DNA of 64,000 nucleotides, from positions 40,271-104,270 of the forward strand of contig CAVQCA010000157.1 of the NCBI GenBank assembly GCA_963710815.1, read 5' to 3'. The first letter of the stretch is position 1. Each line of letters begins with the position of its first letter. A program made the position numbers and the translations under genes. The stretch is from an uncultured Gammaproteobacteria bacterium (GTDB lineage: Bacteria > Pseudomonadota > Gammaproteobacteria > UBA9214). The notes beneath the pieces are model-generated. The model was not told the DNA's origin and made no database searches. It saw only the letters and a program-made list of their open reading frames with translations. Shown piece after piece: positions 8,078 through 62,695 of the stretch.

Positions 8078-8105
8078 AGGGATGGCTTCTTTTTGCTGTA
8101 CACCG

Positions 8106-9017: not shown

Positions 9018-9099
9018 CCCCACCGCCTCTAGAAACCTGTTGTCAGGCAGAACCAGTCGCGACAACCAACCTGACGCGGGACGTGAGTCGTGATCGACC

Positions 9100-10065: not shown

Positions 10066-10212
10066 ACTTATCCCCCAACCAAATACAGGTAATAATGCTT
10101 AATGCGGAAACACGGGGGGCTGCCTGAAGCAGCCCCCCGCCATCCCTGTTGGCCCCCATACACCCGGGGCCAAGCCACCATTTCCGGCTTCAGTGCACGG
10201 CGATCCCGCCAT

Positions 10213-11281: not shown

Positions 11282-11375
11282 GATCATCTCCTTGAGTTTT
11301 TCGTTTGCATGAGCCGTCCCGGGTGGGGCGTTCTCAAGCTCGGTTGCCATCCCGAAGGACAGGCGCGACACAATA

Positions 11376-11418
11376 ATGCAGTCATATGTCGATTGTATTA
11401 CAGCGATGTCACAACTTT
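11376..11418 (-). promoter_or_regulatory. candidate Pho box (PhoB-binding 7-bp repeats at 11-bp periodicity) upstream of pstS
   Basis: On the pstS coding strand: CTGTAAT-acaa-TCGACAT-atga-CTGCATT. This resembles CTGTCAT-N4 repeats and sits about 95 nt upstream of the pstS ATG. Confidence 0.3.
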
Positions 11419-44468: not shown

Positions 44469-44969
44469 ATGGGACGTTACCGCCCGCCCGCACCGAAATC
44501 CTCCCCCTACATCACCCGGGACGGCCATCGCGCCTTGCAGGAGGAATTGAAGGACCTGTGGTTACGCCGTGCCGATGTGACCCGGGCGCTCACAGCCGCG
44601 GCAGCGGAAGGGGATCGCTCGGAGAACGCCGAATACATCTACCGCAAAAAGGAACTGCGCGAGATCGACCGGCGCCTGCGCTACCTGCAGAAACGCCTGC
44701 CGGAACTGAAGGTAGTGGCCAGTCCACCGACCCGGCCGGAGCTGATTTATTTCGGCGCCTGGGTCAGCCTGCAGGATGACGACGACCGGGAACAGGTCTA
44801 TCGCATCGTTGGCGCAGACGAATTCGACACCCGCCGGGGCTGGATCAGCATGGACTCCCCGCTGGCCCGGGCACTGATGAAAAAAACCGTCGATGACGAA
44901 GTCCTGGTCGAGACGCCCGGCGGTGCAAGGCGCTACCTTGTCGTCGGAGTCAGCTATGACACTTTCTGA
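44469..44969 (+). CDS. greB: transcription elongation factor GreB
   Basis: …[26 protein letters not shown]… and …[15 protein letters not shown]… match GreB rather than GreA; 166 aa. Confidence 0.85.
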
Positions 44970-45140
44970 TGCGGGCGCCAGGAGCCTGTCGACTTGTGCC
45001 TCCATGCACACAGTGTTTCCATTCCAGAAAGCCATGACGAGGAATAACATCTCCCGGCCTGCTATTTCATTTCGGGCTGGACTTGTCTGGTCGGATCAAA
45101 CTGATACAGATAACCGGAGGCCCCGTTTGCCTTTATCGAG

Positions 45141-46628
45141 TCAAGCCTGCTTTCCAGCCTTGTCCAGGAAATAGAGCAGGAATCGTTCATCGTCCATTCC
45201 GGATTTATTCCACACATGAGAAAACACCAGCCAGACCCGATTGAACCCATCCACTTTCTCTACATCGGCAAGATAATCATCCCATGTCTTCCGCGAAGAA
45301 TTTCCCCGGATCACAGCCTCGGCGGGTATATCGTAACGTGCCTGATAGTACCTGAAAGCCATATCTGCCCCATAGTAGACATAAACCTTATCATCCGGTT
45401 CTCTTGATTTTCTAATATACTCCAGAACAGTCTTAATATCTTCTTTCACATAAGGCACGTTGTGGAGGCATTTGACAGTGCACCCATCACCGAACTAAAC
45501 AGCAGCATAACAATAACAACATACCATGCAGCACGGTATTCACTCCCTGTTATTTGCCACATGGCTTCGAGGCCAGCGGCGATAACGATAATCGTTCCCG
45601 GCACAAGGAAGTTTAACAAACGGGTACTAAACGGATATTCGTGAAAAGCGGATGCGACAAGCACAATAAGAACAGGCAGAACGAGCATGCCTGACCACAA
45701 CGGTTATTTCTCCAAATATAAATCAGCCGATAAGAAACAGGAGCGCAGCCACCCCAACTGCACTGAAACCAACAGGGTTGCCGAAGAAGTCAATAAAATG
45801 CGACCAGTACCAGCGAATGTCGGCAAATGATATTGGCGGGAAAGGTGCAAATGCGTCTTTCCAGTAAATATTTATCATCTTCGATAATGTCGCTGACCCC
45901 GCAGAAGAGCCTATACTGGATATTGCGTAGAGACCGAACGCGAAACTCCCGATCCAGAGAATCGATGACATTGCTATTCGAGCTACATCGAACCATTGCT
46001 TCTTCAGAAGAAACTGCGTTCCCGCACAAAGACCGATAGCGGCAAGAATAAATGCGGCCGGATGCGATAACCACACACCAAGAATGCCTGCCATGGTCAA
46101 CAATAACCAGCGCCGGATATTCCATTCCTCCAGGCTGTAGGCAGCTGCCAGATATAAAATCAGGGACACCATAATGTCCGAGGAGTATTGCTTGACTTCC
46201 GCGGCGTAATAAATCGCCCAGTGTGAGACAGAAAATATTGCCAACGCGATAATGGCTATCCGCGCCCCGAATAGCTTTAGTGCCAGCTTGTATACGCAAA
46301 AGACAGAGACTATTCCCGCGACCAGAGGGTAGAGTCGCAGGATATATTCATTACCCCCAAAACACCTGACAGCCAGGGTTTCAATAAGCAGAAACCCTAC
46401 GGGTGCCATTTGGTCATTCGCCAAAGGGTGAAATATGCTCCACACGGGAGTATGAACAAAATTCAGGGCCAGCTGACCCTCGTCAATCCACAATGAGCGA
46501 TTGCCGAGGTAATGCTTGATGCGGAAGAAAAGACCGATACCGATGAAAAACAGTACGCCGTAACGGTATCCAGTATTGCCAAACCAGCCCGAAGCCTTGC
46601 CAGCGGTCTTGCGCCCTGTATTTCTCAT
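45141..46628 (-). pseudogene. GT39/GT83-type (ArnT/PMT-like) polytopic glycosyltransferase split into three ORFs by two frameshifts; putative serotype-specific Gtr transferase
   Basis: Listed ORFs 45723..46649 (N-terminal 9-10 TM region), 45446..45700 (TM) and 45141..45458 (soluble C-terminal domain) are contiguous and co-oriented downstream of gtrB-gtrA. Confidence 0.6.
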
Positions 46629-46676
46629 ATCCATAACCTGCAGAGGCAACTCTGAAGGTTTGCTGGTTACGTAAGG

Positions 46677-47177
46677 TTATCCAGAGGAGTTGTAGTTTTT
46701 GCGTGTATGGCGAATCAGGAAATGACCTGCTCTTGTCTGAAGACGAAATACCTGGACGCATAAAAATTGAAAAACAGGGCGATGCCAAGACCCGATGGCA
46801 AGCGCCAGAACCGGATAAGTCACCATGACTGGAAACGTCTCCAGGCATATGCTGTATATCCCCAGATTAAGCAGGGCACCGATGCTTTGAACAGTAAGGT
46901 AACGGGCGTACTCGATTTTCTTGTTATTTCTTGCCTGGCTAGCGAATGTCCAGTGTCTGTTCAGATACCATGTAAGGGTTACGGCAACCGCAAATGAGCA
47001 AAGGCGCGCCCTGTACGGCCCCCAATTCAATCCGTTAACCAGTAGAGTCAGGACCGACGCATCGGCCATAAAGCCGATACCGCCGACAAATGTGAATGAA
47101 AAGAGGGGCTTATGAAGTTTTTTTGCCACAACAAATCCGGGAAAGCTGTCGTCACATATCCCGCAGGGGCATGGCAC
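46677..47177 (-). CDS. gtrA: GtrA-family polysaccharide-synthesis membrane protein (flippase-like)
   Basis: Small 4-TM protein (…FSFTFVGGIGFMAD…NRHWTF…) of the GtrA family, immediately downstream of gtrB. Confidence 0.65.
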   Translation of the reverse strand: MPCPCGICDDSFPGFVVAKKLHKPLFSFTFVGGIGFMADASVLTLLVNGLNWGPYRARLCSFAVAVTLTWYLNRHWTFASQARNNKKIEYARYLTVQSIGALLNLGIYSICLETFPVMVTYPVLALAIGSWHRPVFQFLCVQVFRLQTRAGHFLIRHTRKNYNSSG

Positions 47178-47193
47178 CGCCGTCGGCTCTTCT

Positions 47194-48195
47194 TCAAGCT
47201 ATCCGGTTATCTCCCCATCCGAAAGTATCCTTGAAAGCCAAGAAACGTGACGGCCCGGGTATACTCAAGTAGTGCAGGCGCTTTATTTCACGCCTGCCCC
47301 TGGTGACGGTGTCCAGAATCAATCCGCTTACCAGGCTCAGAAAGGCAAGGATCATTAAACCGGTCGAGAGAATTGCCGTCGGAAACCTGGGAACCAGGCC
47401 GGTTCACAGATAGGTGATCATCAATGGCCAGGCCAGAATTATTGCCACGCCAGCGAATAGTGCAAATATAGCCGCAAAAAATTGTGAGGGCCTGTCCGCC
47501 TTAACCAGCACCAGAATGGTCCCAAGTATTCGCAAGCCATGCCGGAATGTTTTCAGCTTGCTTGTTGAATTGGGTGGTCTTTCCCTGTAGGGAGTCTGCA
47601 TTTCCAGAATCGGCATTCCCAATTCCAGAGCATGGATAGTCAATTCGGTTTCGATTTCAAAGCCATTGGTCAAGACGGGAAACGACTTGACAAACCGCCG
47701 TGAAAAAACCCGATAACCAGACAACATATCACGCAAGCGGTTACCAAAAACCAGACCGGCAATTCTGGTTAAAACCACATTACCAAGCCGGTGGCCAGGG
47801 CGGTATGCGCCCTCGGCGTCAGTGATTCTCGCACCATTCACCATATCCAGAGATTTTGACAACAAGTGACCAATAAAAATCGGGGCGCTTGCCGCATCAT
47901 AGGTGTCGTCTCCGTCAACCAGCACATAAACGTCCGCCTCGATGTCGGCAAACATGCGTCGTATGACGTTTCCCTTGCCCTGCAGTTCCTCAACAAGAAC
48001 TATTGCACCAGCGGTTTGCGCCATCTGAGCCGTACGATCAGTGGAATTATTATCGCAAACATAAATAATTGCTGTGGGTAATGTCTTACGAAAATCGTTA
48101 ACCACTTTTGCGATACTGGATTCCTCGTTATAACAAGGAATCAATACTGCAGTCTTGATCGCACTTAATTCGCGCAGATGATCATACGAGTTCAT
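47194..48195 (-). CDS. gtrB: bactoprenol glucosyltransferase GtrB (GT2, Dpm1-like); frameshift near 47400
   Basis: N-terminal GT2 core (…VLIPCYNEE…DNNSTDRT…VDGDD…). The listed ORF ends …MITYL* at 47404, but the adjacent frame continues with the canonical GtrB C-terminal TM (…TGLVPRFPTAILSTGLMILAFLSLVSGLILDTVTRGRREIKRLHYL…) to the stop at 47194. Confidence 0.7.
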
Positions 48196-48399
48196 AACGT
48201 AATCACCAGAAATTCAAGAAATGCATGGAGATATTAGGAAAACATTAACCGATCACCCGACCCTACACATACCCAGTCAACCCGGACCTGTCTTCTTCCC
48301 TACCTGGCATAATTTTCCGGCCATCATGGTTCCAGAGGCTGATTTTATTGTTAGCCATACTGAGGCAGCAAGGCCAGTCTTATATCCAATTATCTGCAG

Positions 48400-48523
<124 letters not shown>

Positions 48524-48928
48524 CCTGCGGTTCGCCCCCGGGTGATAGTATCCTGTGTCGGCGGGGAGCATAGAGCCGAATAGATCGTCAGGCGGTGCAC
48601 GGGGTTTGGGCATCAGGGCAACCAGCCGGGCGATGACCTGCGCTTCTACCTGGAACATACCGGCTGGATGCCCCCCTGGCTGGCATTGTTTAGCCGGGCC
48701 GGCACGTTGTTTGGCCTGTCTCACCCTTTCACACAGCGTATCGGCCGTACAGACAAGTTTCCCGGCGATCGATGCCATCTCCACCTATTGCGAATCGTGT
48801 TCCCCCTGGTGCTTGAATATTAGCCACACGTTCCGTTCCCGGAACTCCGGGGAGTGTTTCGTTGTCTCTCCCTCATAAACCCGTCCTCTCAAGAAATGGG
48901 GTCTCCGGAAAGCCCGGAGCAAATCACT

Positions 48929-49892
<964 letters not shown>

Positions 49893-49897
49893 TAGTG

Positions 49898-49955
<58 letters not shown>

Positions 49956-50147
49956 TTACCAGTTCTCTTTAGACATGAAGAGTGCAGGCATCACACTGTC
50001 TAACAGACAAGCATAATCCAAGGCCATCATTGTCTTATAAGGAAACGTGAACCCACAGCTATTGCCGATTGGCCTGGTCACGTTTCACCTGCTGTCCTCT
50101 TTCTCCTAAAAGCCTCTCGGTTGCCTCATCAATGATCTGATCCGTGC

Positions 50148-50935
50148 TCAGGAGCGGCTCCACTGTGGAGGCAAGCCTAGAAACTCCCGGCATAGTTTTC
50201 TTGGCCTCAGCACCTTACGTGCCATCCCTTTCAATCCATGAAACATCCAGGGGCCAATACTTGGCAGTTCATGGGGCTTGTACTCCATCCCCAACGACTC
50301 ACACCAGTCCATCCACTTGAATGAATTCAACGAGTGAAATATCTTCACCGGTATCCAGCGGACACGAAGTGCATCGGCAACGATGGCCCCGTGCATAGCC
50401 TCTGTTATCAGCACTTCCGTGCGCATTACTTGATCCAATATGTCTTCGACATCACCGGACGGATCAATATGATGGATACCCGCCGACTCACAGGGTCTGT
50501 CCCAATCGATCAACTCTGCGCTCTGGTGATAGGAAAAGAAAGAGACTGGATAGTTTTTTTCCTTCCTGGGGATATCAGCCGCCCTGACGAGGATGCCCGA
50601 ATCCGTTATCGCATGCCGGCGGTCTAAGCCAAGCGCGTCTGCGCTGCGTGGTCCCCTTACGGCATAAATCGACCACTTTTCGTCAACCTTAGGTACATCA
50701 CCGTAAGCGACACCCGAACCCAGAACGATTTTCCTCGGCTGCTCCGGGATATGATGATTCAGCAGTGAACCAACACCCACGAATAGCGTCTCGGATTCAT
50801 TTGACATGAAGACTTACAGAACGCCAGGTAGGGATTATCGGTATCTATGAAAGAGCCTATCAGTTTAGGCCATAACCATATATTCAGATCATCGCCAAAA
50901 TTACCCCGCGGATTCTGATAATAGTATAATCGCAT
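50148..50935 (-). pseudogene. polysaccharide pyruvyl transferase (WcaK/ExoV family); frameshift near 50810
   Basis: N-terminus MRLYYYQNPRGNFGDDLNIWLWPKLIGSFIDTDNPY… (the canonical ExoV/WcaK start) is in one frame. The body …ETLFVGVGSLLNHHIPEQPRKIVLGSGVAYGD…WSIYAVRGPRSADALG… is in listed ORF 50148..50807. Confidence 0.65.
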
Positions 50936-51074
50936 ATTTCATATCGTACCGGGACAACAGTAGCGATGCCGTAAACCGGGTGATTCCAGGCTTCCCGAGA
51001 ATTCACGCAATGCCTTGATCAGCAAGCCATGCCACGATGGGAACTTGCAAGCCGCAACGAAAAATCAAACGTTA

Positions 51075-51527
51075 TTACTTTGCTTTTCTCCCTTCAACCG
51101 GCTTCCCGATCATCCATTTGCCACCTTGCTTTCCCGAACGTGAAGACGGGGGAGAAACTTCGAGTTCAATCCTGGCATTACGCCCGTCCGTCCAGTCGAT
51201 GGATACATTAGCATTGTAATTACCATCGGCTTTCTTTGTAATATCGTTCAGTACAAAACTGGCGCCCGAATAGTAGTTTCTCAGAAACTCTCCGGTGTCT
51301 CCTTGTTTCGATCAAACAGAGTACGATACTCATCATATGATTTCCCATTGAGGTACTGTTTGATCACTGCAACATTTCCCTCCTTCATGGCCTGGAACAA
51401 CGGTAAAAACGAGGTGTCGCGTACCACCCTGAACGTCTCCGGGTCATTGTCTCTCAGCCCTGGGAATGAGCGAAAGTCAAAGGGAGCAGTAGACCAAGCA
51501 GGGTAAGAAAAGACATTCGCCGCATAG
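51075..51527 (-). pseudogene. small exported hypothetical protein (signal peptide MRRMSFLTLLGLLLPLTFAHS) with two or more frameshifts
   Basis: Manual translation of three frames: signal peptide, then …GLRDNDPETFRVVRDTSFLPLFQAMKEGNVAVIKQYLNGKSYDEYRTLFDRNKETPE…, then …FLRNYYSGASFVLNDITKKADGNYNANVSIDWTDGRNARIELEVS…GKWMIGKPVEGRKAK*. Confidence 0.45.
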
Positions 51528-51535
51528 GTTATACC

Positions 51536-52339
51536 TCATTGCGTTAGGGCATTGAACGACTGATTGGCCAAGCCCTGATAGCCCAGGCCGTTGGGATGGA
51601 TATTGTCGTAATATTCCGTGGTATAGGTTGCCTTAAAGTAGTTGTAGAGATCCGGGCGGGATAACAGAAATATTGTTTCCCGCGATAGCACGCAACTCAT
51701 CAATTACGACATTATATTCCTGTATCAACAGACTCCGCGCACCATTGTCCGGATCAGGATAAGGTGTTGTATTAGTGCTGTCACCAAGCGCAATATTTAT
51801 TTTGGAAAGGATGACTTCATGACCCTTGCTGTTTATTGCGCTGATGATCTGCTGCATATTGTCCTTGAACGAACCTGCATATCCGGGGTCCCCTTTACTC
51901 AGCCCTTCACCACTCGGAACGGGTAGCCATGGCCTGGCATCATTCATGCCGTAGAGCACCAGATACCTTTTGGCTGCAGCGTACCTGTCCAACATCAACT
52001 GGCGGAAATAATCTGGCCAATCCACCGGCGGAGGTCTCACCTTGGTGGCCTTCATTCTTGACCGTATGGGGTATGCCAGTAAAGTTTGTCAGCAGATTGT
52101 TAAGAATCGGTTCATACCCACCAACGTACGGGATGGGATCACTAAAGTCCGGCGGGGGAGGACCATTGCGGCTATCGGCCGAGACATTGTCGCTGCTGAT
52201 ATCATCGCCATAACCCCAGGTAATGCTGTCACCCATCGCGACATAATATTGAATATTGGCTCACAAATGCCGCCGCAGAAGGCGGGAACAGGCTGACCGC
52301 CAACAGGAGCAGCAATACACCCCTATCGATGTTCATGGA
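51536..52339 (-). pseudogene. SGNH/GDSL-family hydrolase with signal peptide; three or more frameshifts
   Basis: MKFLASMNIDRGVLLLLLAVSLFPP… signal peptide. Block I GDSITWGYGDD is in ORF 51940..52236, the middle is in ORF 51633..52055, and block V …YDNIHPNGLGYQGLA… is in a third frame ending at 51536. Confidence 0.6.
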
Positions 52340-52934
52340 AGCAAGAAATTTCATCTGAAATACCCGAATCTTTTAGATAACAGCGCCTTAACCAAATGAT
52401 CCAAACTCGTTTCTGAGAGATATGCTAATGATAATAGATTAAAATGATATCCAATCAAAGAATATAGTCCCTTGGTACGAATCGGTTTATGGAGAAGCGG
52501 TTGAGTAGAGGACGATCATCATCCTCGCAGGCACTTTGGAGGTGCGAATCAGACCCCACCGGGTATCCGGAAGATACCCCAAGGTTATTATTAGTTTGAC
52601 CAGAAAGTCGGTGGGATTGCAAGGACTTTATGTATTGACAGTTATGAAAGCGGGCGGTGAATCAGATGCAAAAACGGCGCCGGATAAGCGGTATCGCTTC
52701 GTTCTTTGTAGCAGCTGTGGACCCCACAGTCCGTCGCCATGATAGCCACGCTGCCCGCCGGCTTCGTCGTCTGTTGCTGTTGGGTCCACGTGCATCTGGT
52801 CTACACCCAATGCCAGGAAATCCGTGATCACTGTATCGTCGCGGATTCTACCAGCAGACAGGCAAGACCCGCTGGAGATATGAGATCTCTCGTTTACATT
52901 TTCCCATTCATTAATCCTGAATAAAGGGTAGACA

Positions 52935-53913
52935 ATGCGACCTGTGTATTTCCTGTTTCCAAGAATGCGAATCAATAGCGGCGGGCACATTGCCCAGATA
53001 AAGTTTTTTAATCTGGCAAAATCAATCTGCCAGGCTTATGCAGCCACATACAAGGAAAAGGACCAGGACGATATTTTTCTGGATGATGTCCTTAAACAGG
53101 ATGTCGATGATGAAGCGATATATGTCGTTCATTGGGGCCCCGATGTTCAACATCTTCTGCAAATACTTTCTAATAAACATGTTGTTTATTTTGCTCATAG
53201 CAGTGGCTGGAACATCCGTATACCTTCTGAAATACCAATAGTTGCAGTAAGCAAACACACACAAGCCTTTTGGGGCAAACACGCACCTAATTCATTGATT
53301 TACTATCTGCCCAATATACTTTCTGAAAACTATACCCAGCTACAGCAACACCGCTCAATTGACGTTCTTGTGCAGAAAAGGAAATCTTCCAGATATTTAC
53401 TTGAAGAACTTGTTCCCGCCTTGAAACAAAGCTGCAATGTTGAGGTGCTAGATTCATGGGTCGATGATTTGGCAGAGGTTTTTAACAGAACTAAAGTGTA
53501 TCTATACGATTCTACCGATCACTGGCACCAGATTGGTGCGATTGAATGACTTTCGCTTGCCTCCGCTGGAAGCTATGGCATGCGGGTGCACCGTGATTAA
53601 CCATTGTAAACGATGCCGAGAGTGATTACCTGGATCGTGGATTGAATTGTTGACAAGTTACTCAGTGCAAACAAGGCAATACGACATTGACCGGATTGCA
53701 GAAGCCGTCAAACTGTACAATAGTAATCATCGTCTCAACCAATATGCCGAACTGATCGCGCAGTACAGAGAGCCCTGCATCAAGATGCGATTCACAAGGA
53801 TATTAGGTAACATTAACGAATTCTTTGATTGCACAAAAGGTTCAGAAGCCGATATTCCTGTCCTGGAAACACCTTCAAATTATTCTCAACTAGAGCAAGC
53901 ATCAACAACATAA
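52935..53913 (+). pseudogene. GT4-family glycosyltransferase; three or more frameshifts
   Basis: N-terminal domain is in ORF 52935..53549. The GT4 E-x7-E region …FRLPPLEAMACGCTVI… is in a second frame, and the C-terminus (…DRIAEAVKLYNSNHRLNQYAELIAQY…) is in ORF 53647..53913. Confidence 0.6.
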
Positions 53914-54161
53914 TCCCTTCATCTCTTAAGAGTAGCCGAAAAGTTCACCTTGAATCAAAGGTTTTGGTGTCGTAGCCAGAAATTGCTGAAAATGCACCAT
54001 TAAGGTTGTATCGACAAATCCGACATCCAGGGGATTCTGAAGAACGGATTATCTAGCATCAGGACGCTGAAAGCAAACGGGGAATTAACGTACGATACAC
54101 CACTCACGCCGGTATTGGCATTATAATACTCTCCTCGATTAACGACTTATCGGTAACCACC

Positions 54162-54461
54162 ATGACAAAGACTGAATGCTTTAACGCGACGCACCGCCTG
54201 CGCACGCTTGGAATCGCCGGCCTCCTCCTCGTCGTGCTCGGCGGCGGCACGGGCACTGCCCTGGCCGAGACCAAGGGCGACACCAAACTCGATGATACCG
54301 CGAAAGAAGTCGGCAACAATTTCGGCGAATTGCTTGAGGGCATGGGTCAGGAACTGAAGAAAGTCATCGGCTCGGACAACGGGGCGGACAGCAAAAAGGT
54401 TGACAAGGAAAAAAAGGAAGAAGCGGACGATAAATCCGGCAAACCCCCGGAAAAACAATAA
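54162..54461 (+). CDS. small secreted low-complexity Lys/Asp/Glu-rich protein (99 aa)
   Basis: Clear signal peptide (…LGIAGLLLVVLGGGTGTALAETKG) and a TATAAT-like -10 box upstream; co-oriented with the DUF2238 gene. Confidence 0.5.
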   Translation: MTKTECFNATHRLRTLGIAGLLLVVLGGGTGTALAETKGDTKLDDTAKEVGNNFGELLEGMGQELKKVIGSDNGADSKKVDKEKKEEADDKSGKPPEKQ

Positions 54462-54542
54462 GCAGCGTCCCCGCTCGGGCGGGGTTCGGGAACCCGATGG
54501 TACTGCACAGGCTGGATCCCCTCCTCTGACCCGGAGTAATGC

Positions 54543-55178
54543 GTGAACGCCATGCCATTTCGCACCAACCGCCCCTTGCAGGGCATGCTGATCTGGCTGG
54601 TGCTGATATGGGTGGTCACCGCAATCGAGCCCTTCGACCGCCGAGACTGGCTGCTGGAGAATCTGCTGGTCTTTCTCTACGGCTTCCTGTTGCTGGTTAC
54701 CTACCGGCGCTTCGCCTTCTCCAACCTCTCCTACGGGTTGTTCACCGTGTTCCTCAGCCTGCATCTGATCGGCGCCCATTACACCTACGCCGAAACGCCG
54801 CTCGGCTACTGGCTCCAGGAACTGTTTGACCTGCAGCGCAATCACTATGACCGCCTCGTGCACTTCTCCTTCGGCCTGCTGATTGCCTACCCGTTTCGCG
54901 AATTGCTACTGCGCGCGGCGGGCGTGCGCAAATCATGGTCATACCTGCTCGCCGTGACGCTGGTGCTGGCGTTCAGCGGCATCTATGAAATCATCGAGGC
55001 CATCGTCGCCGAAATCGTGAGTCCCGAACTCGGCTCCGCCTATCTCGGCACCCAGGGTGATGAATGGGACGCCCAGAAGGACGCCTTCGAGGCTTTTGTC
55101 GGCGCCGTCGTCGCCATGACCATCACCTGGATGTCGCTGCGCTCGCCCCGGTCACCGGACACAGGCGACAGCGGGTAA
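54543..55178 (+). CDS. DUF2238 (YjdF-like) inner-membrane protein
   Basis: About 200-aa polytopic protein (…LIGAHYTYAETPLGYWLQELF…NHYDRLVHFSFGLLIAYP…) resembling the YjdF family, recalled from memory. Confidence 0.5.
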   Translation: MNAMPFRTNRPLQGMLIWLVLIWVVTAIEPFDRRDWLLENLLVFLYGFLLLVTYRRFAFSNLSYGLFTVFLSLHLIGAHYTYAETPLGYWLQELFDLQRNHYDRLVHFSFGLLIAYPFRELLLRAAGVRKSWSYLLAVTLVLAFSGIYEIIEAIVAEIVSPELGSAYLGTQGDEWDAQKDAFEAFVGAVVAMTITWMSLRSPRSPDTGDSG

Positions 55179-55499
55179 ACGCTTGCTCCGACAGCGCCCA
55201 CCACCAGGATCTGGCGCCCCCCTCTCGCGGATGCTATCGTGAAATAGCCTCTGGAATGAACGGGGCCTGGTTAAACCTGATCACATCACTATGGCCACGG
55301 AACCACACGGAAAAGCGGAGTACGAGCTCTTTTTTCGATGTCTTCCGTGCACTTCCGTGGCGATTTATCGCGTCTGGGCCTTAACCACGTACCCTTCATC
55401 CCGGACCGGCAATACCGAATCGATCGCCATGCCAGACCCAGTTACACTTCGCCATGAACGGTCATACTCACCGCTACGACAGGCGGCTCTTCACCTGTC

Positions 55500-57320
55500 A
55501 TGAACGAATTCAGCACCAACGAGCCGCCGTCGACCAGTGGCGCCGGACACGGCCTTATCGCGAGGATCATCGCCCGGCTGGCGCAGCGCTACCGGGATAC
55601 TCCGCCGCCGCTGGATACGAACGAGTTGAGCCGGCGGCTGGCGGCGTTGGAGCTGACCGAAGCGGCGCTGCGCGATATCGCCGCCCTGGACGGGCCGGCG
55701 CCGCGCCCCCTGCAGGTGGCCGTGGTGGGGCCGACCCAGGTCGGCAAGAGCACCGTCGTCAACCTGCTGCTCGGCCAGGGTGTGGCCGAGGTCAGCCCGC
55801 TGGCCGGCTTCACCATTCACCCGCAGGGATTCGCGCTGCCGTCGCGGGAGGCGAATCCGGACTGGATCAAACCCTTCTTCCCAGGTTGGGAACGGCTCGA
55901 GAACACAGCCCCCAGCCGCGACCGCCTCGATTGCTACGCCTTGCATCACCTCACCGGCGACGCGCACGGGCTGCCTTCCGGCACCGTGGTCTGGGACACG
56001 CCCGACTTCGATTCCTTCAAGGCCCATACCTACCAGCGCGGCGTGCTTGAAGTCGCCGCGCTGGCCGACGTCATCGTGCTGGTGGTAAGCAAGGAAAAAT
56101 ATGCGGATCTCTCGGTATGGAAAACCCTGCAATTGCTGGAGCCCCTGCAGCGCGCCCTGCTGGTGTGTCTGAACAAGACCGGGGACAACACCCGGGACGT
56201 GCTGGTACAGGCCTTGCGGACACGCCTCGCCGAGCTGACACCCCTGGCGGAGAACATCGAAGTCATTGCCATGCCCTACTGGCCGGGGATCGATGCACCC
56301 GTGAGTGCTCCTCCTGGTGAGGTGGCCGATCTGCGCGCGGCGCTCGGGCGCGCGCAGACCGGCACCGACCGCAGCCTGCGCGCCGCCGGAGTGCGCAGAC
56401 TGCTGCAACAGCACTGGGGCGCCTGGATGGAGCCGGTACGCGTCGAGCTCGAAGCCGCCGCGATCTGGGAGCAGTCCATCGAGGCAGCCATCAAACAGGC
56501 GCTGGCAGCCTACCGGGACGAATTTCTGGACCATCCGAAACGCTTCGACACCTTCCGCCTGGCCATTCTGGAACTCCTGCAGCTGCTGGAATTACCCGGT
56601 CTGGCGCGATCGCTGACACGTGTGCGCCAGGTGCTCACCTGGCCGGCACGCCAGCTCTTTGATTCCCGACGCATGAAATCCCTCACCGGCCGCCTGCGCG
56701 GCAAGGCGGTGCATGACCTGCCCGGCGAGGAGCTTGTCCTGCGTGACCTGCTGGAGCAGCTGCTCACCACGCTCTCGCGTGACGCCCTGCGCCGCGGCAC
56801 GCCGCAAACCCCGGGAGCAGCCTTCTGGCAGGCGCTCGGCCAGCGCCTCGTCGAGCGCCAGACGGAACTTACCGAACAGTTCGCCGCGGCCATCCACCGC
56901 CACCACCTCGACTTCCAGCCGGAGATCGAGGCCGCGGCTCACGACCTGTACGCCAACCTTCAGCAGAAACCCGCCCTGCTCAACACCCTGCGGGCGGCGC
57001 GCGTCACCACCGACGCCGCGGGTGTCGCCCTGGCCCTCAAGACCGGGGGCGTGGGACTCAACGACCTGCTGTTCGCACCGGCGATGGTGTCGCTGACCTC
57101 CATGCTGACCGAGGGTGCACTGGGATCCTACATGACGCACGTCGCCGGGCGGTTGAAGCAGCGACAGTACGCAGCCGTGGAAAAGAGGGTATTCACCGGT
57201 GCGGTCAAAGCGGCATTGCTGGGTCTAACCGAAACCCTCGATGCCCCCGGTCTCTTCGGAATCACGCGAACGGAGTACGAGGCAGCGGAACAGGCACTGA
57301 GGGCGTGGCGGCATGACTGA
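55500..57320 (+). CDS. large P-loop GTPase (dynamin-like / MMR_HSR1-like) with non-canonical switch II DTPDFDS; paralog of the downstream gene
   Basis: G1 GPTQVGKST, G2-like TIHP, DxPDxDS in place of DxxG, G4-like LNKTGD, and a roughly 400-aa helical C-terminal region. It overlaps the next gene by 8 nt (ATGACTGA). Confidence 0.7.
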   Translation: MNEFSTNEPPSTSGAGHGLIARIIARLAQRYRDTPPPLDTNELSRRLAALELTEAALRDIAALDGPAPRPLQVAVVGPTQVGKSTVVNLLLGQGVAEVSPLAGFTIHPQGFALPSREANPDWIKPFFPGWERLENTAPSRDRLDCYALHHLTGDAHGLPSGTVVWDTPDFDSFKAHTYQRGVLEVAALADVIVLVVSKEKYADLSVWKTLQLLEPLQRALLVCLNKTGDNTRDVLVQALRTRLAELTPLAENIEVIAMPYWPGIDAPVSAPPGEVADLRAALGRAQTGTDRSLRAAGVRRLLQQHWGAWMEPVRVELEAAAIWEQSIEAAIKQALAAYRDEFLDHPKRFDTFRLAILELLQLLELPGLARSLTRVRQVLTWPARQLFDSRRMKSLTGRLRGKAVHDLPGEELVLRDLLEQLLTTLSRDALRRGTPQTPGAAFWQALGQRLVERQTELTEQFAAAIHRHHLDFQPEIEAAAHDLYANLQQKPALLNTLRAARVTTDAAGVALALKTGGVGLNDLLFAPAMVSLTSMLTEGALGSYMTHVAGRLKQRQYAAVEKRVFTGAVKAALLGLTETLDAPGLFGITRTEYEAAEQALRAWRHD

Positions 57321-59016
57321 CCGGCTCACACGACTGCGTGGTCAGGTCGGCGCCTGGATCAGCCGCGCGCAGACCATGGCATGGGTCGACACGGTGGAAC
57401 TACAGGCGCTGCAACGCCTGGAACAGCACACCCCGGCAGATCTGTTCAGCCGGGGGCAGCCCGCCCGCCCGCTGGTGGTGGCATTTTTCGGCGGCACCGG
57501 CGTAGGCAAGAGCAGCCTGCTCAACCGCCTTGCCGGACAAAACATCGCGCGGGTCGGCGTGGAGCGCCCGACATCCCACGAGGTCACCGTCTACGTGCAT
57601 GAAGCGGTGGAGCTGGCTACCCTGCCGGAGCACTTTCCCGTGGATCAGGTGCACATCGCGCGACATGCCGATAAGGCACGACGTGATGTCCTTTGGATCG
57701 ACATGCCGGATATCGACAGCACCGAACAAAACAACCGGGAACTGGCCTTTGCCTGGCTGCCCCATATCGACCTGCTGGTCTATGTGGTCAGTCCCGAACG
57801 CTACCGCGACGACATCGGCTGGCGGGTATTGCACCAGCGCGGCCACCGTCACGGCTGGATGTTCGTCATGAATCGCTGGGACGAAGGTGCTCCCGAACAG
57901 CAGGACGACCTGCTCACCATCCTGCATGAGGCCGGGTTTGCCGACCCGGTGGTGCTGCACACCTGCAGCGGTGACAGGCCCTGCCCGGATGACCGGTTCG
58001 CGGAGCTGGAAGCCTCCATCCGGGAAGTGCAGGCACAGCACGGCCAGCGGGAGCTGGAGCGGCTCGGACATCTGGCTCACCTGCATGACCTGGCCGCCCT
58101 GCTGCAGGCGGCGCTGCAGCGCCTGGGCACGCCGGCTGAGTGGGCCAACCTTCAGGCCGGGTTTCGACGGGAATGGGCAAGCACGGCGGTAGCGATCGTG
58201 GACGGCATGACCTGGCCCATCAAGGAGATTGGCGCGGAATTCGCCAGCCGCGATGCCGGTCTGCTGACCCGGCTGATCGGAAATCGCGAGGAATCGACGC
58301 CGGCAAGCCGTCAGGAACCGGGGAGCGCGCGCCCCGCAACACGAACCGCCATGGAACAGCAGGCGGTCACCACCCTCTGGGATAGCTGGGCGCAGGGCAA
58401 GCTGGCCGAGGTCTGCGACACCCTGGAGATCGCACTGCGACGCATCGACGTCGCCCCGCAGCCGCTGCTTACACGCCTGCAAGAGGTCACCGGGGACGCC
58501 GGTCGGACAGTCAGCCAGCGGCTGCAACAGTCCCTGCGGTTGGGACTCGCCCACCCCGGGACGGCATGGCAGCGGGCGCTGCGCCGCGGCACCGCTGCCA
58601 CGCTCAGCGTGCTGCCCATTGCGGCCCTGCTGTGGGTGTCCTACCAGGTGGTCACCGGCTTCCTGCATGGTGCCACCGGGCAGGCGGCCTACCTCGGGGT
58701 CAACTTCGCCATCAACAGCGCGCTGCTGGTGCTGGTCGCCTGGCTCCTGCCCTTCCTGCTGCACCGTCGCCTCAAACCCTCCCTGGAAACGACCGTGACA
58801 CGCGCGCTGCACACGGGCCTCGAACTCGGACTGGAGGAACTCCATGCCAGGGCGGAAACGGCATTCGCCGCGGCCGATGCGGAACGCGAGCGGCTGCTGG
58901 CCGAGGCCGGGAAGCTTCTCGAGGAACTGGGTCGGCACGGCGATGAGCCGCACCCGGCTCCCGGCGCCGCCGTGGCCCGCCTGCTCCCGGTGCAGGCACG
59001 TCCCGAAACCGCCTGA
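57313..59016 (+). CDS. large P-loop GTPase paralog with a C-terminal transmembrane hairpin (dynamin-like; possibly GTPase+DUF3482-type)
   Basis: G1 GGTGVGKSS, TSHE, DMPDIDS and NRWD in the same order as the upstream paralog. Two hydrophobic helices lie near the C-terminus (…LSVLPIAALLWVSYQVVTGFL…, …AINSALLVLVAWLLPFLL…). Confidence 0.7.
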   Translation: MTDRLTRLRGQVGAWISRAQTMAWVDTVELQALQRLEQHTPADLFSRGQPARPLVVAFFGGTGVGKSSLLNRLAGQNIARVGVERPTSHEVTVYVHEAVELATLPEHFPVDQVHIARHADKARRDVLWIDMPDIDSTEQNNRELAFAWLPHIDLLVYVVSPERYRDDIGWRVLHQRGHRHGWMFVMNRWDEGAPEQQDDLLTILHEAGFADPVVLHTCSGDRPCPDDRFAELEASIREVQAQHGQRELERLGHLAHLHDLAALLQAALQRLGTPAEWANLQAGFRREWASTAVAIVDGMTWPIKEIGAEFASRDAGLLTRLIGNREESTPASRQEPGSARPATRTAMEQQAVTTLWDSWAQGKLAEVCDTLEIALRRIDVAPQPLLTRLQEVTGDAGRTVSQRLQQSLRLGLAHPGTAWQRALRRGTAATLSVLPIAALLWVSYQVVTGFLHGATGQAAYLGVNFAINSALLVLVAWLLPFLLHRRLKPSLETTVTRALHTGLELGLEELHARAETAFAAADAERERLLAEAGKLLEELGRHGDEPHPAPGAAVARLLPVQARPETA

Positions 59017-59036
59017 CGGGATGCCGGCCGGATACC

Positions 59037-59300
59037 ATGGACCTTTCGAAATCGGGTGTCTGGTACATGATCCTCTGCTGGGTGTCGGCGATCGGCGGCA
59101 TCGTGACGGCTATCCTGTGGGCCGCCTCGAAAGGTCGCCCCCCGGTCGATGACGCATTGCTGCGCACGTCCCTGGAACGTCGCCTGAAATCCGGGGAAAT
59201 CAGCCAGGCGGAATACGAGCAAAGGCGTGAGCAATTGCGATTGGGACAAGTCCCCAGGCCGGAACCCGCCCGCGGTAGGAAACCACCACCACGGACGTAA
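59037..59300 (+). CDS. SHOCT-domain small membrane protein
   Basis: N-terminal TM helix (VWYMILCWVSAIGGIVTAILWAA) followed by the SHOCT-like motif …LERRLKSGEISQAEYEQRREQL…. Confidence 0.55.
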   Translation: MDLSKSGVWYMILCWVSAIGGIVTAILWAASKGRPPVDDALLRTSLERRLKSGEISQAEYEQRREQLRLGQVPRPEPARGRKPPPRT

Positions 59301-59555
59301 CAGTCACGCACCGCTCGCCGGACTGGCGACCGGGCCGGTCACAGATCCCGCCGTAAAAACACCATCGAAGCCGGCCAGGGCTTGCGCCCGGCGATCAATC
59401 GGGTCGCCCGCGAACATGATGTTTCATATTCAACGGGCAAATGCCGGTCCGCGTGCGTGGAGGGTGTCGATTCCAGAGGGACCGACAAGCCTCGTATTGG
59501 TGCGCCACCGCGGCCTGTGTATAGTAGGTTCACCGTCTGCACCTGCTTACCGGAT

Positions 59556-60467
59556 ATGACCATGGCTGTTCAGCCGACCCTACCGCCAGCCACTCCGCCG
59601 CCCTCTCCACTGAAAGAGATCGGCGTGAATCTCATTGACAACCCGGGTCAGTGGCTGGAAGGTGTGCTGCGCGAATTGACCACGGCGCTCAAGACACTCC
59701 TGCCACACCTGCTGGAGGCACTGGCGCTGCTCCTCGTTGGCTGGCTGGCGGCCTTTCTCATGCGCTGGCTGGTCAACCGTTTTGGCAAGGGGCTGGACGT
59801 GATTATGGCGGCTATCCACCGCTGGCTCGGCCAGGAAGTCACCCGGCCACGCTGGTCGGTCACGAGCCTGGTCGGCAATATCGCCTTCTGGATCACGCTT
59901 GCCTACGCCCTCAGCGCCGCAGCGGAACAGGTCGGTCTGGTCACCTTCGCCAACTGGGTGCTGGGGCTGCTCGGCTATCTGCCGCGGGTACTGATCAGCG
60001 CCTTCATCCTGTTCATCGGCTACCTGATCAGCAGCGGCATACGCAACATGATCGTGACGCTCGCCGATGCCAGCGGCTTCCAGCACGGGATTTCCCTCGG
60101 TCACCTGTCAGCGGGTTTGATCCTCGCCTTCACCCTGCTGCTCGGCCTCAGCCAGCTCGGGCTCGATGTCAGCCTGTTCGCCAACATCATCCTCCTGGCG
60201 GCGGCAGCGCTTTTCGGCAGCGCCGCGATCGCCTTCGGCATCGGCGCCGCCGACGCGGTGCGCAACGTCATGGCCTCGCACTATGTGCGCAAGGTCTACC
60301 GGACCGGACTGCGGGTGCGCGTGCAGGGACTGGAGGGCGAGATTCTGGAGTTGACACCGGTGGCGGTGGTCATGGAAACCGCGGACGGTGAGGCCCTGAT
60401 CCCGGCACGCCATTTTCTGGAAACCGTATCCATGATCGTCGATGAGCAGGAGGCCGGCCGTGCTTGA
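59556..60467 (+). CDS. MscS-like mechanosensitive-channel-family protein (TM-helix repeats plus a short MscS beta-domain-like C-terminus)
   Basis: Repeated conserved-TM-helix segments and a C-terminal …VRVQGLEGEILELTPVAVVMETADGEALIPARHFLETV… that resembles the MscS middle beta-domain. Start chosen at MTMAVQ. Confidence 0.5.
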   Translation: MTMAVQPTLPPATPPPSPLKEIGVNLIDNPGQWLEGVLRELTTALKTLLPHLLEALALLLVGWLAAFLMRWLVNRFGKGLDVIMAAIHRWLGQEVTRPRWSVTSLVGNIAFWITLAYALSAAAEQVGLVTFANWVLGLLGYLPRVLISAFILFIGYLISSGIRNMIVTLADASGFQHGISLGHLSAGLILAFTLLLGLSQLGLDVSLFANIILLAAAALFGSAAIAFGIGAADAVRNVMASHYVRKVYRTGLRVRVQGLEGEILELTPVAVVMETADGEALIPARHFLETVSMIVDEQEAGRA

Positions 60468-61293
60468 TGCCCTCACCAAAGGGTACCTCACCCGGCACCC
60501 GGCCGCCGCAGCGCGCACCCTGGCGCGTCTCGACAGCCGCGATCTCCAGGCCGTCTTTCAGGCCATGCCACGCCAGCTGGCCGCCAGTGTGCTGGAACAC
60601 ATGCCTCCGGTCTCGATTGTTCGATGCCTTGCACAGCTACAGTCCAGGACGGCAGCCGAGATCCTGATGCGCATCCCGTCGCTGACGGCCGTGGCGGCGT
60701 TGCGCCAGATGAACACCGACCAGGTAAAGAGACTGTTCGCCGCAATGCCGCGCGCGGCCGCCGCGCGGCTGCGGCTGCGTCTGCGCTACCCGGAAACGCT
60801 GGTCGGCTCCTTCGTGGATGCGGATGTGCTGACCTTCAACCTGGAACAGCGCGTGGGCGATGCGCTGCGGCTGGTGCGCCGCGTCGGCCAGCGCGTGGGC
60901 CACACGCTCTACGTACTGGATGAGCATCGCCGCCTCGCGGGTGTAGTCGACCTGAGCGATCTCCTCGGTGAGCGCGATCGCAGCAGGATCCAGCGGGTGC
61001 TGCGTCCCGCACCTATGGTGCTTAATGCACGGACGGCGCTGCAAACGGTCTCCAGTCATCCGGCCTGGCTTACCCACGACAGCCTGCCGGTAGTCAACCG
61101 CGAGGGCGTGTTTCAGGGCGTACTGTCGCGCTCCAGGGTGATGACGGAAGAACACCAGCTGTTCACCGAGGTGGCGGAACGCAATGAGCTCTCCATCACC
61201 CGAACCGCTCTGGCGGATATCTTCTGGCTGAGTGTGGCGTCGCTCTTTACCGGCAACAGCGGCTCGACCACGCGTCACAAGGTGAAGGACTGA
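60442..61293 (+). CDS. soluble MgtE-N/CBS-domain protein (MgtE lacking the transmembrane domain)
   Basis: Resembles the N-domain and CBS pair of MgtE (…VLDEHRRLAGVVDLSDLL…) but has no TM segments. It overlaps the upstream gene by 26 nt and ends 1 nt before mgtE. Confidence 0.6.
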   Translation: MSRRPAVLDALTKGYLTRHPAAAARTLARLDSRDLQAVFQAMPRQLAASVLEHMPPVSIVRCLAQLQSRTAAEILMRIPSLTAVAALRQMNTDQVKRLFAAMPRAAAARLRLRLRYPETLVGSFVDADVLTFNLEQRVGDALRLVRRVGQRVGHTLYVLDEHRRLAGVVDLSDLLGERDRSRIQRVLRPAPMVLNARTALQTVSSHPAWLTHDSLPVVNREGVFQGVLSRSRVMTEEHQLFTEVAERNELSITRTALADIFWLSVASLFTGNSGSTTRHKVKD

Positions 61294-61294
61294 G

Positions 61295-62602
61295 ATGAAA
61301 CCGGGACTCGACAACGCCATCCATATCCTGCAGCGTGACCTCATCGAAGACCACCCGGACGATGCCGTGCAGCTGCTGGAGCGGCTGCCGCCCGCGGAAA
61401 TCGCCGACGTCCTGTCCCGGCATCCCGTGACGGTGGCTGCTCCCGTCTGGGAACGGCTGTCGCCGGACATCGGCTGGCGGGCCATCGCAACCCTGGCGGA
61501 ACCCCGAACGACGGAGGTGCTGCGACACATAAGCGCCCCGCGTGCCGCGGCCCTGCTTGCCATGGCTGACCCGCAAACCCGTGAGGGACAGCTGGCGCGA
61601 CTGCCGGCCACCGCTGCGGACGAACTGCGCACCATTCTTTCCTACCCGGCCGATTGCGCGGGCGCCCTGATGGACCCGCGCGTGCTGCTGTTGCGTCCCG
61701 AGACCACGGTGAACGAGGCCCTGGCCCGCATCCGCGGGCTGCGAAGGCGCGGTGTGCACATGCTCTTCATCGTGAATGCAGAAAATCACCTCGAGGGCGA
61801 GGTGGATATCCAGGATATCGCCACCGCAAGCGGAACCACGCGTATCGAGGAGATTCAGCACCCGGTACGGGCGGTGGTCGATGCGATTTCACCGCGTGAG
61901 GAAGTGGTGGACATCCTGGAGCGCTACCGCCTCACCGACCTCCCGGTGGTGGATGCCGAGGGCCGCCTCATCGGCGCCGTGCGCTATCGCAACCTCATGG
62001 CCGCCGCCGAGGACGAGGCCACGGTCGCCATGCAGACGATGGTGGGCGTCAGCAAGGACGAGCGCGCCCTGTCGAAGGTATCCTTCGCGGTGCGCAAGCG
62101 ACTGCCCTGGCTGCACATCAATCTGGCAACCGCCTTCCTGGCCGCCTCCGTCGTCGGCCTGTTCGAGAATACGATCGCCAAATACACCGCGCTGGCCGTG
62201 CTGTTGCCAATCGTGGCCGGACAGGCCGGGAACACCGGCGCCCAGGCGCTCGCCGTCACCATGCGCGGCCTGGCGCTGCGCGAAATCCGCATTCGACACT
62301 GGCCGCGGGTCGTCTTCAAGGAGATGTCCACCGGCTTCTGGAATGGAGCCGCCATCGCCACCACCACCGCCCTTGGGGTCTGGGTATGGAGCGGGTCCAC
62401 CGGACTGGCTGGGATCATCGGCGTTTCCATGATCCTGTCCATGGTCATCGCCGCGATCTTCGGCGCGGCCATCCCTCTGGTGTTGACGGCGATCGGTCAG
62501 GACCCCGCGCAATCCTCAATTATCGTGCTGACGACTATCACGGACGTCACCGGCTTCTTCAGCTTCCTCGGCATCGCCACGCTCTTTTCGGGTTATTTGT
62601 AG
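61295..62602 (+). CDS. mgtE: magnesium transporter MgtE (full-length: N-domain, CBS pair, 5-TM pore domain)
   Basis: …ADELRTILSYPADCAGALMDPRVLLL…, a CBS pair, then the TM domain with …VGLFENTIAKYTALAVLLPIVAGQAGNTGAQ… (MgtE signature). Confidence 0.85.
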   Translation: MKPGLDNAIHILQRDLIEDHPDDAVQLLERLPPAEIADVLSRHPVTVAAPVWERLSPDIGWRAIATLAEPRTTEVLRHISAPRAAALLAMADPQTREGQLARLPATAADELRTILSYPADCAGALMDPRVLLLRPETTVNEALARIRGLRRRGVHMLFIVNAENHLEGEVDIQDIATASGTTRIEEIQHPVRAVVDAISPREEVVDILERYRLTDLPVVDAEGRLIGAVRYRNLMAAAEDEATVAMQTMVGVSKDERALSKVSFAVRKRLPWLHINLATAFLAASVVGLFENTIAKYTALAVLLPIVAGQAGNTGAQALAVTMRGLALREIRIRHWPRVVFKEMSTGFWNGAAIATTTALGVWVWSGSTGLAGIIGVSMILSMVIAAIFGAAIPLVLTAIGQDPAQSSIIVLTTITDVTGFFSFLGIATLFSGYL

Positions 62603-62604
62603 GA

Positions 62605-62691
62605 GTTCAATGGGGTCAGACTCGATTGATCGTGAATTTTTCAATCGGTTACCACATACCGTACGATCAATCGAGTCTGACCCCATTGAAC
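62605..62691. terminator. bidirectional hairpin terminator (29-bp perfect inverted repeat, 29-nt loop containing TTTTT) between convergent mgtE and the DASS transporter gene
   Basis: GTTCAATGGGGTCAGACTCGATTGATCGT-(29 nt)-ACGATCAATCGAGTCTGACCCCATTGAAC, placed exactly between the two stop codons (62600-62602 and 62696-62698). Confidence 0.6.
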
Positions 62692-62695
62692 TTTG

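Follow-up and report, generated by a model that had tools for sequence, protein, structure and literature searches.

How far a broken gene cluster in a metagenome-assembled genome records the loss of a function, and how far it records the state of the assembly, is the question raised by a glycan gene island in a 64,000-nt stretch of DNA from an uncultured gammaproteobacterium (the window, to whose positions all coordinates refer unless a contig is named). The island occupies positions 44982 to 54071, between greB and a gene pair encoding a 99-amino-acid (aa) protein and a DUF2238 protein, and carries a three-gene cassette of the Gtr type followed by further glycosyltransferase (GT), pyruvyl transferase, and SGNH esterase genes. 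Every island gene was disrupted, with approximately 21 frameshifting indels and one nonsense codon counted. The island is genuine, horizontally acquired, and strain-variable, and the frameshifts within it are probably a local artefact of consensus or assembly and not a sign of gene decay. The features of the island and its flanks, ordered by position, are as follows.

44469 to 44969, plus strand: greB, the conserved left flank, intact and without indels relative to contig L081
44982 to 54071, no strand: the whole accessory island, 9.1 kb, absent from the same-species contig L086
45067 to 46634, minus strand: PMT_2 (GT-C type) glycosyltransferase (PF13231, 28.7 to 29.6 bits against a cut-off of 26.1)
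46715 to 47129, minus strand: GtrA-family small membrane protein (PF04138, E 1e-19, 70.9 bits against a cut-off of 26.1)
47152 to 48195, minus strand: GT2, similar to polyprenyl-phosphate-sugar synthases of the GtrB/DPMS class (PF00535, E 1e-13)
48400 to 48522, no strand: A123 tract, where contig L082 carries 190 nt of ordinary GC-rich sequence
48523 to 48880, minus strand: relic of a transposase of the insertion sequence (IS) family IS3, only the N-terminal helix-turn-helix (HTH) part of OrfA, about 60% GC
48896 to 49892, plus strand: GT1-like glycosyltransferase 1, with a weak Glyco_trans_1_2 match
49515 to 49639, no strand: A125 tract within that GT gene, into whose interval contigs L082 and L083 extend with normal coding sequence
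49902 to 49955, no strand: A34-T12-A8 tract between convergent genes, the corresponding stretch of L083 being complex sequence of about 110 nt
50060 to 50935, minus strand: polysaccharide pyruvyl transferase (PF04230, 33.7 to 35 bits against a cut-off of 25.3)
50960 to 51535, minus strand: uncharacterised open reading frame(s) (ORFs) of about 150 aa, from frame tracing only, with at least one frame break
51539 to 52354, minus strand: secreted SGNH/GDSL esterase, Lipase_GDSL_2 after frame repair
52935 to 53913, plus strand: GT1-like glycosyltransferase 2, from frame tracing
54162 to 54461, plus strand: 99-aa small protein of the right flank, intact according to the L086 gene table and alignment
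54543 to 55178, plus strand: DUF2238 protein of the right flank, intact, 99.7% identical with 0 gaps in L081

Three forms of the locus were found within the same species. The empty site is represented by L086 (ENA ERZ27251509, 19 kb; GTPase 99% identical), in which greB lies directly beside the 99-aa/DUF2238 genes; its positions 1 to 166 correspond to 44816-44981 and those from 175 on to 54072-64000, and this contig set the island limits, which are slightly wider than the segment 45141-53913 delimited in an earlier sequence-only reading. The cassette alone is present in L081 (Logan run SRR28024173, 5.1 kb), with intact GT2, GtrA, and PMT_2 genes between greB and the DUF2238 flank (L081 1180-5079 corresponding to 48402-44490, and L081 1-931 to 55018-54088 at 99.7% identity without a gap) and without the 5.7 kb at 48403-54087. 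Parts of the full island occur in L082 (JGI 3300036918), in which 190 nt of ordinary sequence follow the cassette and lead to the IS3 relic and an intact 220-aa N-terminal part of the GT, and in L083 (JGI contig Ga0315540_10092945), which is nearly identical to 50180-50997, joins the GT C-terminus to the pyruvyl transferase, and encodes the latter as an intact protein of 291 aa. A metagenome scan with the pyruvyl transferase returned L083 as the single near-identical contig. Together, L081, L082, and L083 tile 44982-51000. Since the empty, cassette-only, and full forms are found in independent contigs, the island is a genuine acquired element that is polymorphic between strains.

The base composition agreed with this. 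After exclusion of the three homopolymer tracts, GC content of the island was 48.0%, compared to 55.4 to 65.2% (mean, 60.4%) in the other 9-kb intervals of the window (n = 73); 1-kb bins between 45 and 54 kb ranged from 38 to 51% with surroundings of about 60%, and GC content was even, at 45 to 48%, over 48.9-54.07 kb. At third codon positions, it was 0.39 to 0.58 in island ORFs versus 0.68 to 0.87 in flank genes. The sequence-only reading had described the segment as AT-richer than its flanks and horizontally acquired; computed GC content and codon usage are indeed deviant, and the check that it proposed, whether greB and DUF2238 adjoin in relatives without the island, was answered by the empty site in L086. 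Deviant composition combined with presence/absence polymorphism and an intact same-species empty site places the locus among horizontally acquired genomic islands.

The gene map was drawn by frame tracing on the six-frame translation and checked against the reference contigs. Alignment of the island with L081, L082, and L083 revealed 27 indel events in 5.7 kb, 23 of them single-base, together with approximately 230 mismatches (4.0%), and frame tracing of 51.0-54.0 kb added some 6 to 7 further frameshifts. In 10.4 kb of same-species flank alignments, there were approximately 290 mismatches (2.8%) and two indel events, namely, a 92-nt palindromic insertion at 62603-62694 and an additional G at 63904. 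The island had about 25 times the indel density of the flanks, their substitution divergence being similar. The flank genes at 39.3-44.97 kb and 54.1-62.6 kb aligned with sister-species proteins as single high-scoring segment pairs (HSPs), and approximately 15.6 kb of flank genes compared with these proteins contained a single frameshift, the +1 G at 63904. This insertion lies at a non-homopolymer site and interrupts a conserved gene for a CitMHS transporter, of which L086 and the sister-species contig L087 have intact copies. The excess of frameshifts pointed out before was thus borne out, and the figure then given, about 12 in the island, was too low.

The single-base indels showed no preference for homopolymers. 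By length of the run in which they fell, 15 of the 23 were at length 1, 3 at length 2, 3 at length 3, and 2 at length 4 or more, against background base shares of 52, 30, 12, and 6%; homopolymer enrichment is absent. Homopolymer density in the island was 1.1 to 1.6 times that outside. Nine of 13 single-base insertions, that at 63904 included, were a G on the plus strand (binomial probability of about 7e-4 at a G content of 0.24, calculated by hand), while deletions had no base bias. The G-insertion bias looks like the product of a systematic process and may be the signature of a platform or polishing step.

Substitutions carried a different mark. Relative to L081, dN/dS was 0.48 for GT2 and 0.45 for PMT_2, and 62 of 126 differences fell at third codon positions; the low ratios and the third-position excess indicate that most substitutions arose under purifying selection and, hence, that the genes were functional until very recently. 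The three-way alignment of the window, L081, and L082, spanning 45536-48398, yielded 26 private substitutions and 9 private 1-nt indels for the window, 80 and 2 for L081, and 298 and about 2 for L082, the private indels of L081 and L082 all being intergenic. Private substitutions of the window clustered at the edge of the A123 tract (48373-48392) and in a garbled patch at 47171-47223 and included the nonsense change CGA to TGA. Differences from L081 were patchy and formed a fine-scale mosaic of L081-like and L082-like sites. An origin of the indels at the switch points between L081-like and L082-like haplotype segments was also tested, and no clear association appeared.

Runs of more than 8 nt occur in the 64 kb only as the A123, A125, and A34-T12-A8 tracts, all of them inside the island; the sequence-only reading, which did consider homopolymers, had missed these tracts. 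The A123 tract stands with 123 nt in place of 190 nt and the A125 tract with 125 nt in place of about 250 nt, as estimated from Glyco_trans_1_2 profile coordinates. L082 (1-34) enters the A125 interval by 34 nt from one side and L083 (1373-1392) by 20 nt from the other, both with normal coding sequence. The tracts cannot be biological, because related contigs have coding or complex sequence at these places, the lengths do not match, and such runs are confined to these 9 kb. L082 and L083, which come from different JGI metagenomes, both end 20 to 35 nt into the A125 interval. This suggests that the missing middle of the GT gene is hard to assemble everywhere, as a repeat or a strain-variable segment would be.

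The simplest and most likely account is a locally poor consensus in this assembly, which would explain the nonsense codon, all three tracts, and the approximately 30 single-base indels together. Its cause would probably be low or mixed-strain read support, the region being carried by only part of the population, in which case reads over it would be both fewer and mixed, and the errors would not be tied to homopolymers. This explanation is favored by the excess of assembly-private indels, their lack of run preference, their strand and base bias, the constrained state of the genes, and the existence of intact near-identical copies. Spurious pseudogenes are known to arise from low coverage and assembler choice (Cooley & Wright 2024, PMC11017572), and frameshifts in long-read metagenome assemblies typically stem from small indels (proovframe preprint, bioRxiv 10.1101/2021.08.23.457338). 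As in those cases, genes with intact near-identical counterparts are broken here by 1-nt indels, and the density of errors goes with the quality of the local data; unlike in those cases, the errors are confined to 9 kb, are accompanied by tracts of 54 to 125 nt, and show no homopolymer preference. Several points weigh against an artefact. Short-read assemblies seldom contain such errors, and nanopore or 454 data seldom lack a homopolymer bias. The intact reference copies come from other samples and strains; they attest to the usual state of the genes and do not speak for this strain, and 51.0-54.07 kb has no near-identical reference, its right junction (53.9-54.07 kb) being without independent support. 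The remaining points are at the same time arguments for real decay: the C-to-T nonsense change is an ordinary transition, typical of real mutation; strains without the island exist, so that it is dispensable and a real loss of function is plausible; and the IS relic bears witness to a history of decay in the region.

Such decay would be a real and very recent pseudogenisation of a dispensable island, for instance under phage or host pressure on the decorated glycan, with the tracts as a separate assembly problem, and we consider it unlikely, at perhaps one chance among several. In its favor, the island is accessory, with empty and cassette-only forms; the IS3 relic is common to L082; the CGA-to-TGA transition has yielded a truncated 263-aa GT2 ORF that is present in a public protein collection (P0003), a record that attests the stop codon for the deposited sequence and no more; and every gene is affected, as expected after an operon loses function. 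A decaying cluster is expected to have a dN/dS near 1 and a spontaneous mutation spectrum, and values of 0.45 to 0.48 were found here, along with a private indel-to-substitution ratio of 9:26 (1:2.9, or roughly 1:3), no run enrichment, and the G-insertion bias. In mutation-accumulation studies of E. coli, indels amount to about 1/10 of substitutions and are concentrated in homopolymer runs, and the ratio and spectrum that decay would need here are unlike those of spontaneous mutation, so that decay fits poorly. Moreover, the pyruvyl transferase differs from its intact copy by two frameshifts and, over 820 nt, by no more than 3 substitutions, and the indels share their 9 kb with the clearly non-biological tracts. 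If all the indels were nevertheless real, the island, under selection until recently, would have been inactivated by a burst of about 30 non-homopolymer 1-nt indels with a strand-specific G bias and few substitutions. This is improbable; if true, it would point to a local mutational process of an unusual kind, prone to indels, at work on an AT-rich surface-glycan locus of foreign origin.

Two other technical explanations were weighed. Homopolymer mis-calling of AT-rich DNA by a flow-based or nanopore platform, the technical alternative put forward in the sequence-only reading, can draw on the island being AT-richer than its flanks and on runs of 4 to 5 nt being approximately 1.3 to 1.6 times denser than elsewhere. 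However, 15/23 indels lie at run length 1 and 5/23 at 3 or more, against background shares of 52% and 18%, so small a rise in density cannot yield a 25-fold indel excess, and a glycan cluster of 54% GC at 1-7 kb is intact, with ORFs of 257 to 548 aa; this explanation is contradicted by the run lengths and hardly credible. Of the two alternatives offered in that reading, the technical one is thus preferred with its mechanism replaced, and decay into pseudogenes is the one that fits poorly. A chimeric join, in which part of the island, especially 49.6-54.07 kb, would come from another genome or locus and be stitched in via low-complexity tracts, is suggested by the position of the three tracts at segment boundaries, by both L082 and L083 ending within the A125 gap, and by the lack of an independent contig across 51.0-54.07 kb or the right junction. 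Against it, L081 ties greB, the cassette, and the DUF2238 flank together, L082 does so for the cassette, IS3 relic, and GT N-terminus, and L083 for the GT C-terminus and pyruvyl transferase; the GT halves on both sides of the A125 tract fit one protein family, and GC content is uniform over 48.9-54.07 kb. Overall, a join is very doubtful, chiefly so for 44982-51000, which the three contigs tile. Programmed frameshifting or recoding was rejected, as the sites are too many and unrelated and share no motif.

With the consensus artefact as the preferred explanation, the genes can be considered in the form that they have in the reference contigs. The GT2 gene encodes 347 aa and is intact in L081; the window copy is cut by the TGA at 47406-47404 and has, at 47198/47182, a +1/-1 indel pair. 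The repaired GT2, used as query in a protein search, retrieved an intact 347-aa GT2 with 96% identity (P0001), a 357-aa relative with 89% identity (P0002), and the truncated ORF P0003 itself. The best NCBIfam matches, AglJ and dolichyl-P-hexose transferase, both remained under their equivalog cut-offs, the best PDB match was DPMS 5MLZ (E 1e-6), and no GtrB structure in PDB matched at E <= 1e-5. By family profile, the protein is a predicted member of the polyprenyl-phosphate sugar synthase class, for which the label GtrB-like, not GtrB ortholog, is appropriate. GtrA has 137 aa in L081, and in the window an insertion of one base at 46788 shifts its last approximately 25 codons. PMT_2, a polytopic protein of 522 aa encoded on the same strand and starting 70 nt after gtrA in L081, has in the window 1-nt deletions at 45726, 45700, and 45465 and 1-nt insertions at 45145 and 45085.

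According to Kelly et al. 2024 (PMC11127046), a three-component system consists of a synthase of polyprenyl-phosphate sugars, a flippase of the GtrA type, and a GT-C transferase. The cassette encodes a GT2 synthase, a GtrA-family protein (the proposed flippase), and an adjoining GT-C transferase, whose fold is assigned from its family only, so that the gtr-type three-gene cassette recognized previously is present (PF00535, PF04138, PF13231). From these families, the GT2 would load a sugar onto polyprenyl phosphate on the cytoplasmic side, the GtrA-family protein would carry the lipid-linked sugar across the membrane, and PMT_2 would pass the sugar to a periplasmic glycan. As in Gtr-type systems (Mann & Whitfield 2016; PMC11127046), the three genes are closely spaced on one strand and, in L081, intact. 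The cassette differs from the Shigella paradigm gtrA-gtrB-gtr(type) in its order GT2-GtrA-GT-C, and its GT2 is nearer by sequence to archaeal DPMS/AglJ-type synthases than to solved GtrB.

The cassette makes up the first of two modules of the island, from 44982 to about 48400; the second, from about 48400 to 54071, follows the IS3 relic. The relic covers approximately 60 to 100 aa of OrfA with an in-frame stop, has 50 to 57% identity to annotated IS3 transposases on plasmids (tblastn), and lacks a DDE domain and any Pfam match. Its stop is apparently common to L082, which is 98% identical there and whose called gene begins just past it. A complete IS3 element comprises the OrfA HTH, an OrfB DDE transposase, and terminal inverted repeats; the element here is a relic. 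The first GT1-like gene (48896-49892) has 1-nt deletions at 49380 and 49454, the A125 tract in place of its interior, and four further indels at 49656-49839; its first 220 aa are intact in L082 and its C-terminus in L083. The pyruvyl transferase, a family member by its PF04230 score, has two 1-nt deletions, at 50804 and 50180, and, besides these, the 3 substitutions noted above in approximately 820 nt relative to L083. For the ORF region 50960-51535, no match was found in Pfam, NCBIfam, or the protein search.

The frame of the SGNH esterase gene switches at 51655, at about 52000-52030, and probably a third time close to the signal peptide, and a tblastn search with its homologs P0121-P0123 gave three HSPs in three frames. 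After repair, Lipase_GDSL_2 was matched with 53.6 bits over positions 1 to 177 of 178, and the translation contained the four blocks VAMGDSITWG, NEGHQGETS, LYGMNDA, and DNIHPN, corresponding to GDS, G, GxND, and DxxH. The best homolog is P0121, with 69% identity to its SGNH domain, and the homologs share their last residues with the window protein, so that the stop at 51539 is genuine. The second GT1-like gene (52935-53913) has three frame switches, at about 53549, 53590, and 53640; the repaired protein matched Glycos_transf_1 across all three junctions (E 9e-6), just under the cut-off. A concatenated query of the SGNH esterase, the small ORF, and this GT returned only SGNH relatives among the best 120 of 136 matches, with no close relative of the GT1-like protein or the small ORF among them. 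A Pfam scan of the three minus-strand frames found no family beyond PMT_2, GtrA, GT2, and PS_pyruv_trans, and an NCBIfam scan named only the GT2. A pyruvyl transferase and an SGNH esterase are thus encoded as had been proposed, and the two further GTs are GT1-like with weak Pfam matches. Judging from the families, this part of the island, with two GT1-like transferases, the pyruvyl transferase, and the secreted esterase, would decorate a polysaccharide with further sugars and with pyruvate ketals and would also take acyl groups off or transfer them.

No tRNA gene was found in the 64-kb window, no flanking repeat of >=11 nt or att site around the island, and no phage or integrase gene; the IS3 relic was the sole trace of mobility. 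The flanks, which were to be checked for tRNA or att sites, hence hold neither within the window, and serotype conversion in the phage sense, with a prophage or a tRNA/att/integrase setting, has nothing to support it here: in contrast to phage-linked gtr clusters, the cassette lies off any prophage. The island shares with O-antigen and capsule replacement islands the low GC content, presence/absence polymorphism, conserved flanks, and fine-scale allelic mosaic and differs from them in the missing integrase and flanking repeats. Another likeness is that the same slot holds other glycan genes in a sister species (L087 and L088; GTPase 87% identical), where a 98-aa gene and an 886-aa GH17/GT2 fusion, glucan-synthase-like, replace the gtr island and DUF2238 (L087 5141-10001, L088 1857-6717). 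The greB-GTPase slot is a glycan-gene hot spot across species. Among GTDB species representatives, greB reached at best 75% aa identity, and synteny was shared in none of 80 loci, the best matches being among Ectothiorhodospiraceae, Sedimenticola, and Thiohalobacter relatives; exact-protein look-ups with greB, DUF2238, an AlgH-like protein, and P0003 gave no match.

Elsewhere in the window, the second lower-GC glycan cluster, at 1-7 kb, appears by eye to encode an RmlC-like epimerase, an NAD-dependent epimerase, a glucose-1-phosphate cytidylyltransferase-like protein, an FAD oxidoreductase, and a 548-aa WecA/MraY-like transferase and is probably part of an O-antigen or lipopolysaccharide locus; as it is intact, lower GC content alone does not cause frameshifts. 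A complete pstSCAB phosphate transporter operon occupies 7250-11416 on the minus strand, where overlapping stop-to-stop ORFs mimic split genes. Candidate split genes at 7.2-11.4 and 34.1-37.4 kb, both on the minus strand, were rejected, being separate and intact genes for pstSCAB, a CitMHS transporter, and a CBS protein. At 55500-59300, two adjacent large GTPases of 606 aa (MMR_HSR1) and 567 aa (faint Dynamin_N match) are followed by a small SHOCT-domain protein; this trio, kept in L086 and L087, looks like a bacterial dynamin-like pair. The insertion at 62603-62694 relative to L086, located between the convergent MgtE and CitMHS genes, forms a perfect hairpin of approximately 87 nt with 29-nt arms (GTTCAATGGGGTCAGACTCGATTGATCGT), resembling a miniature inverted-repeat transposable element or a repetitive extragenic palindromic element, and no further copies were found in the window or in 89 fetched loci.

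Taken at face value, the locus would be recorded as eight pseudogenes and read as a lost serotype-modifying function. The combination of homopolymer fill-ins, non-homopolymer 1-nt indels, and G-insertion bias may serve to flag unreliable stretches of metagenome-assembled genomes. The main value of the finding is one of caution, as independent contigs show these genes to be normally intact and the population to be polymorphic for the locus, which occurs empty, with the cassette alone, or in full. The island itself is an ordinary example of a well-known kind of locus and represents typical, unsurprising diversification of surface glycans.

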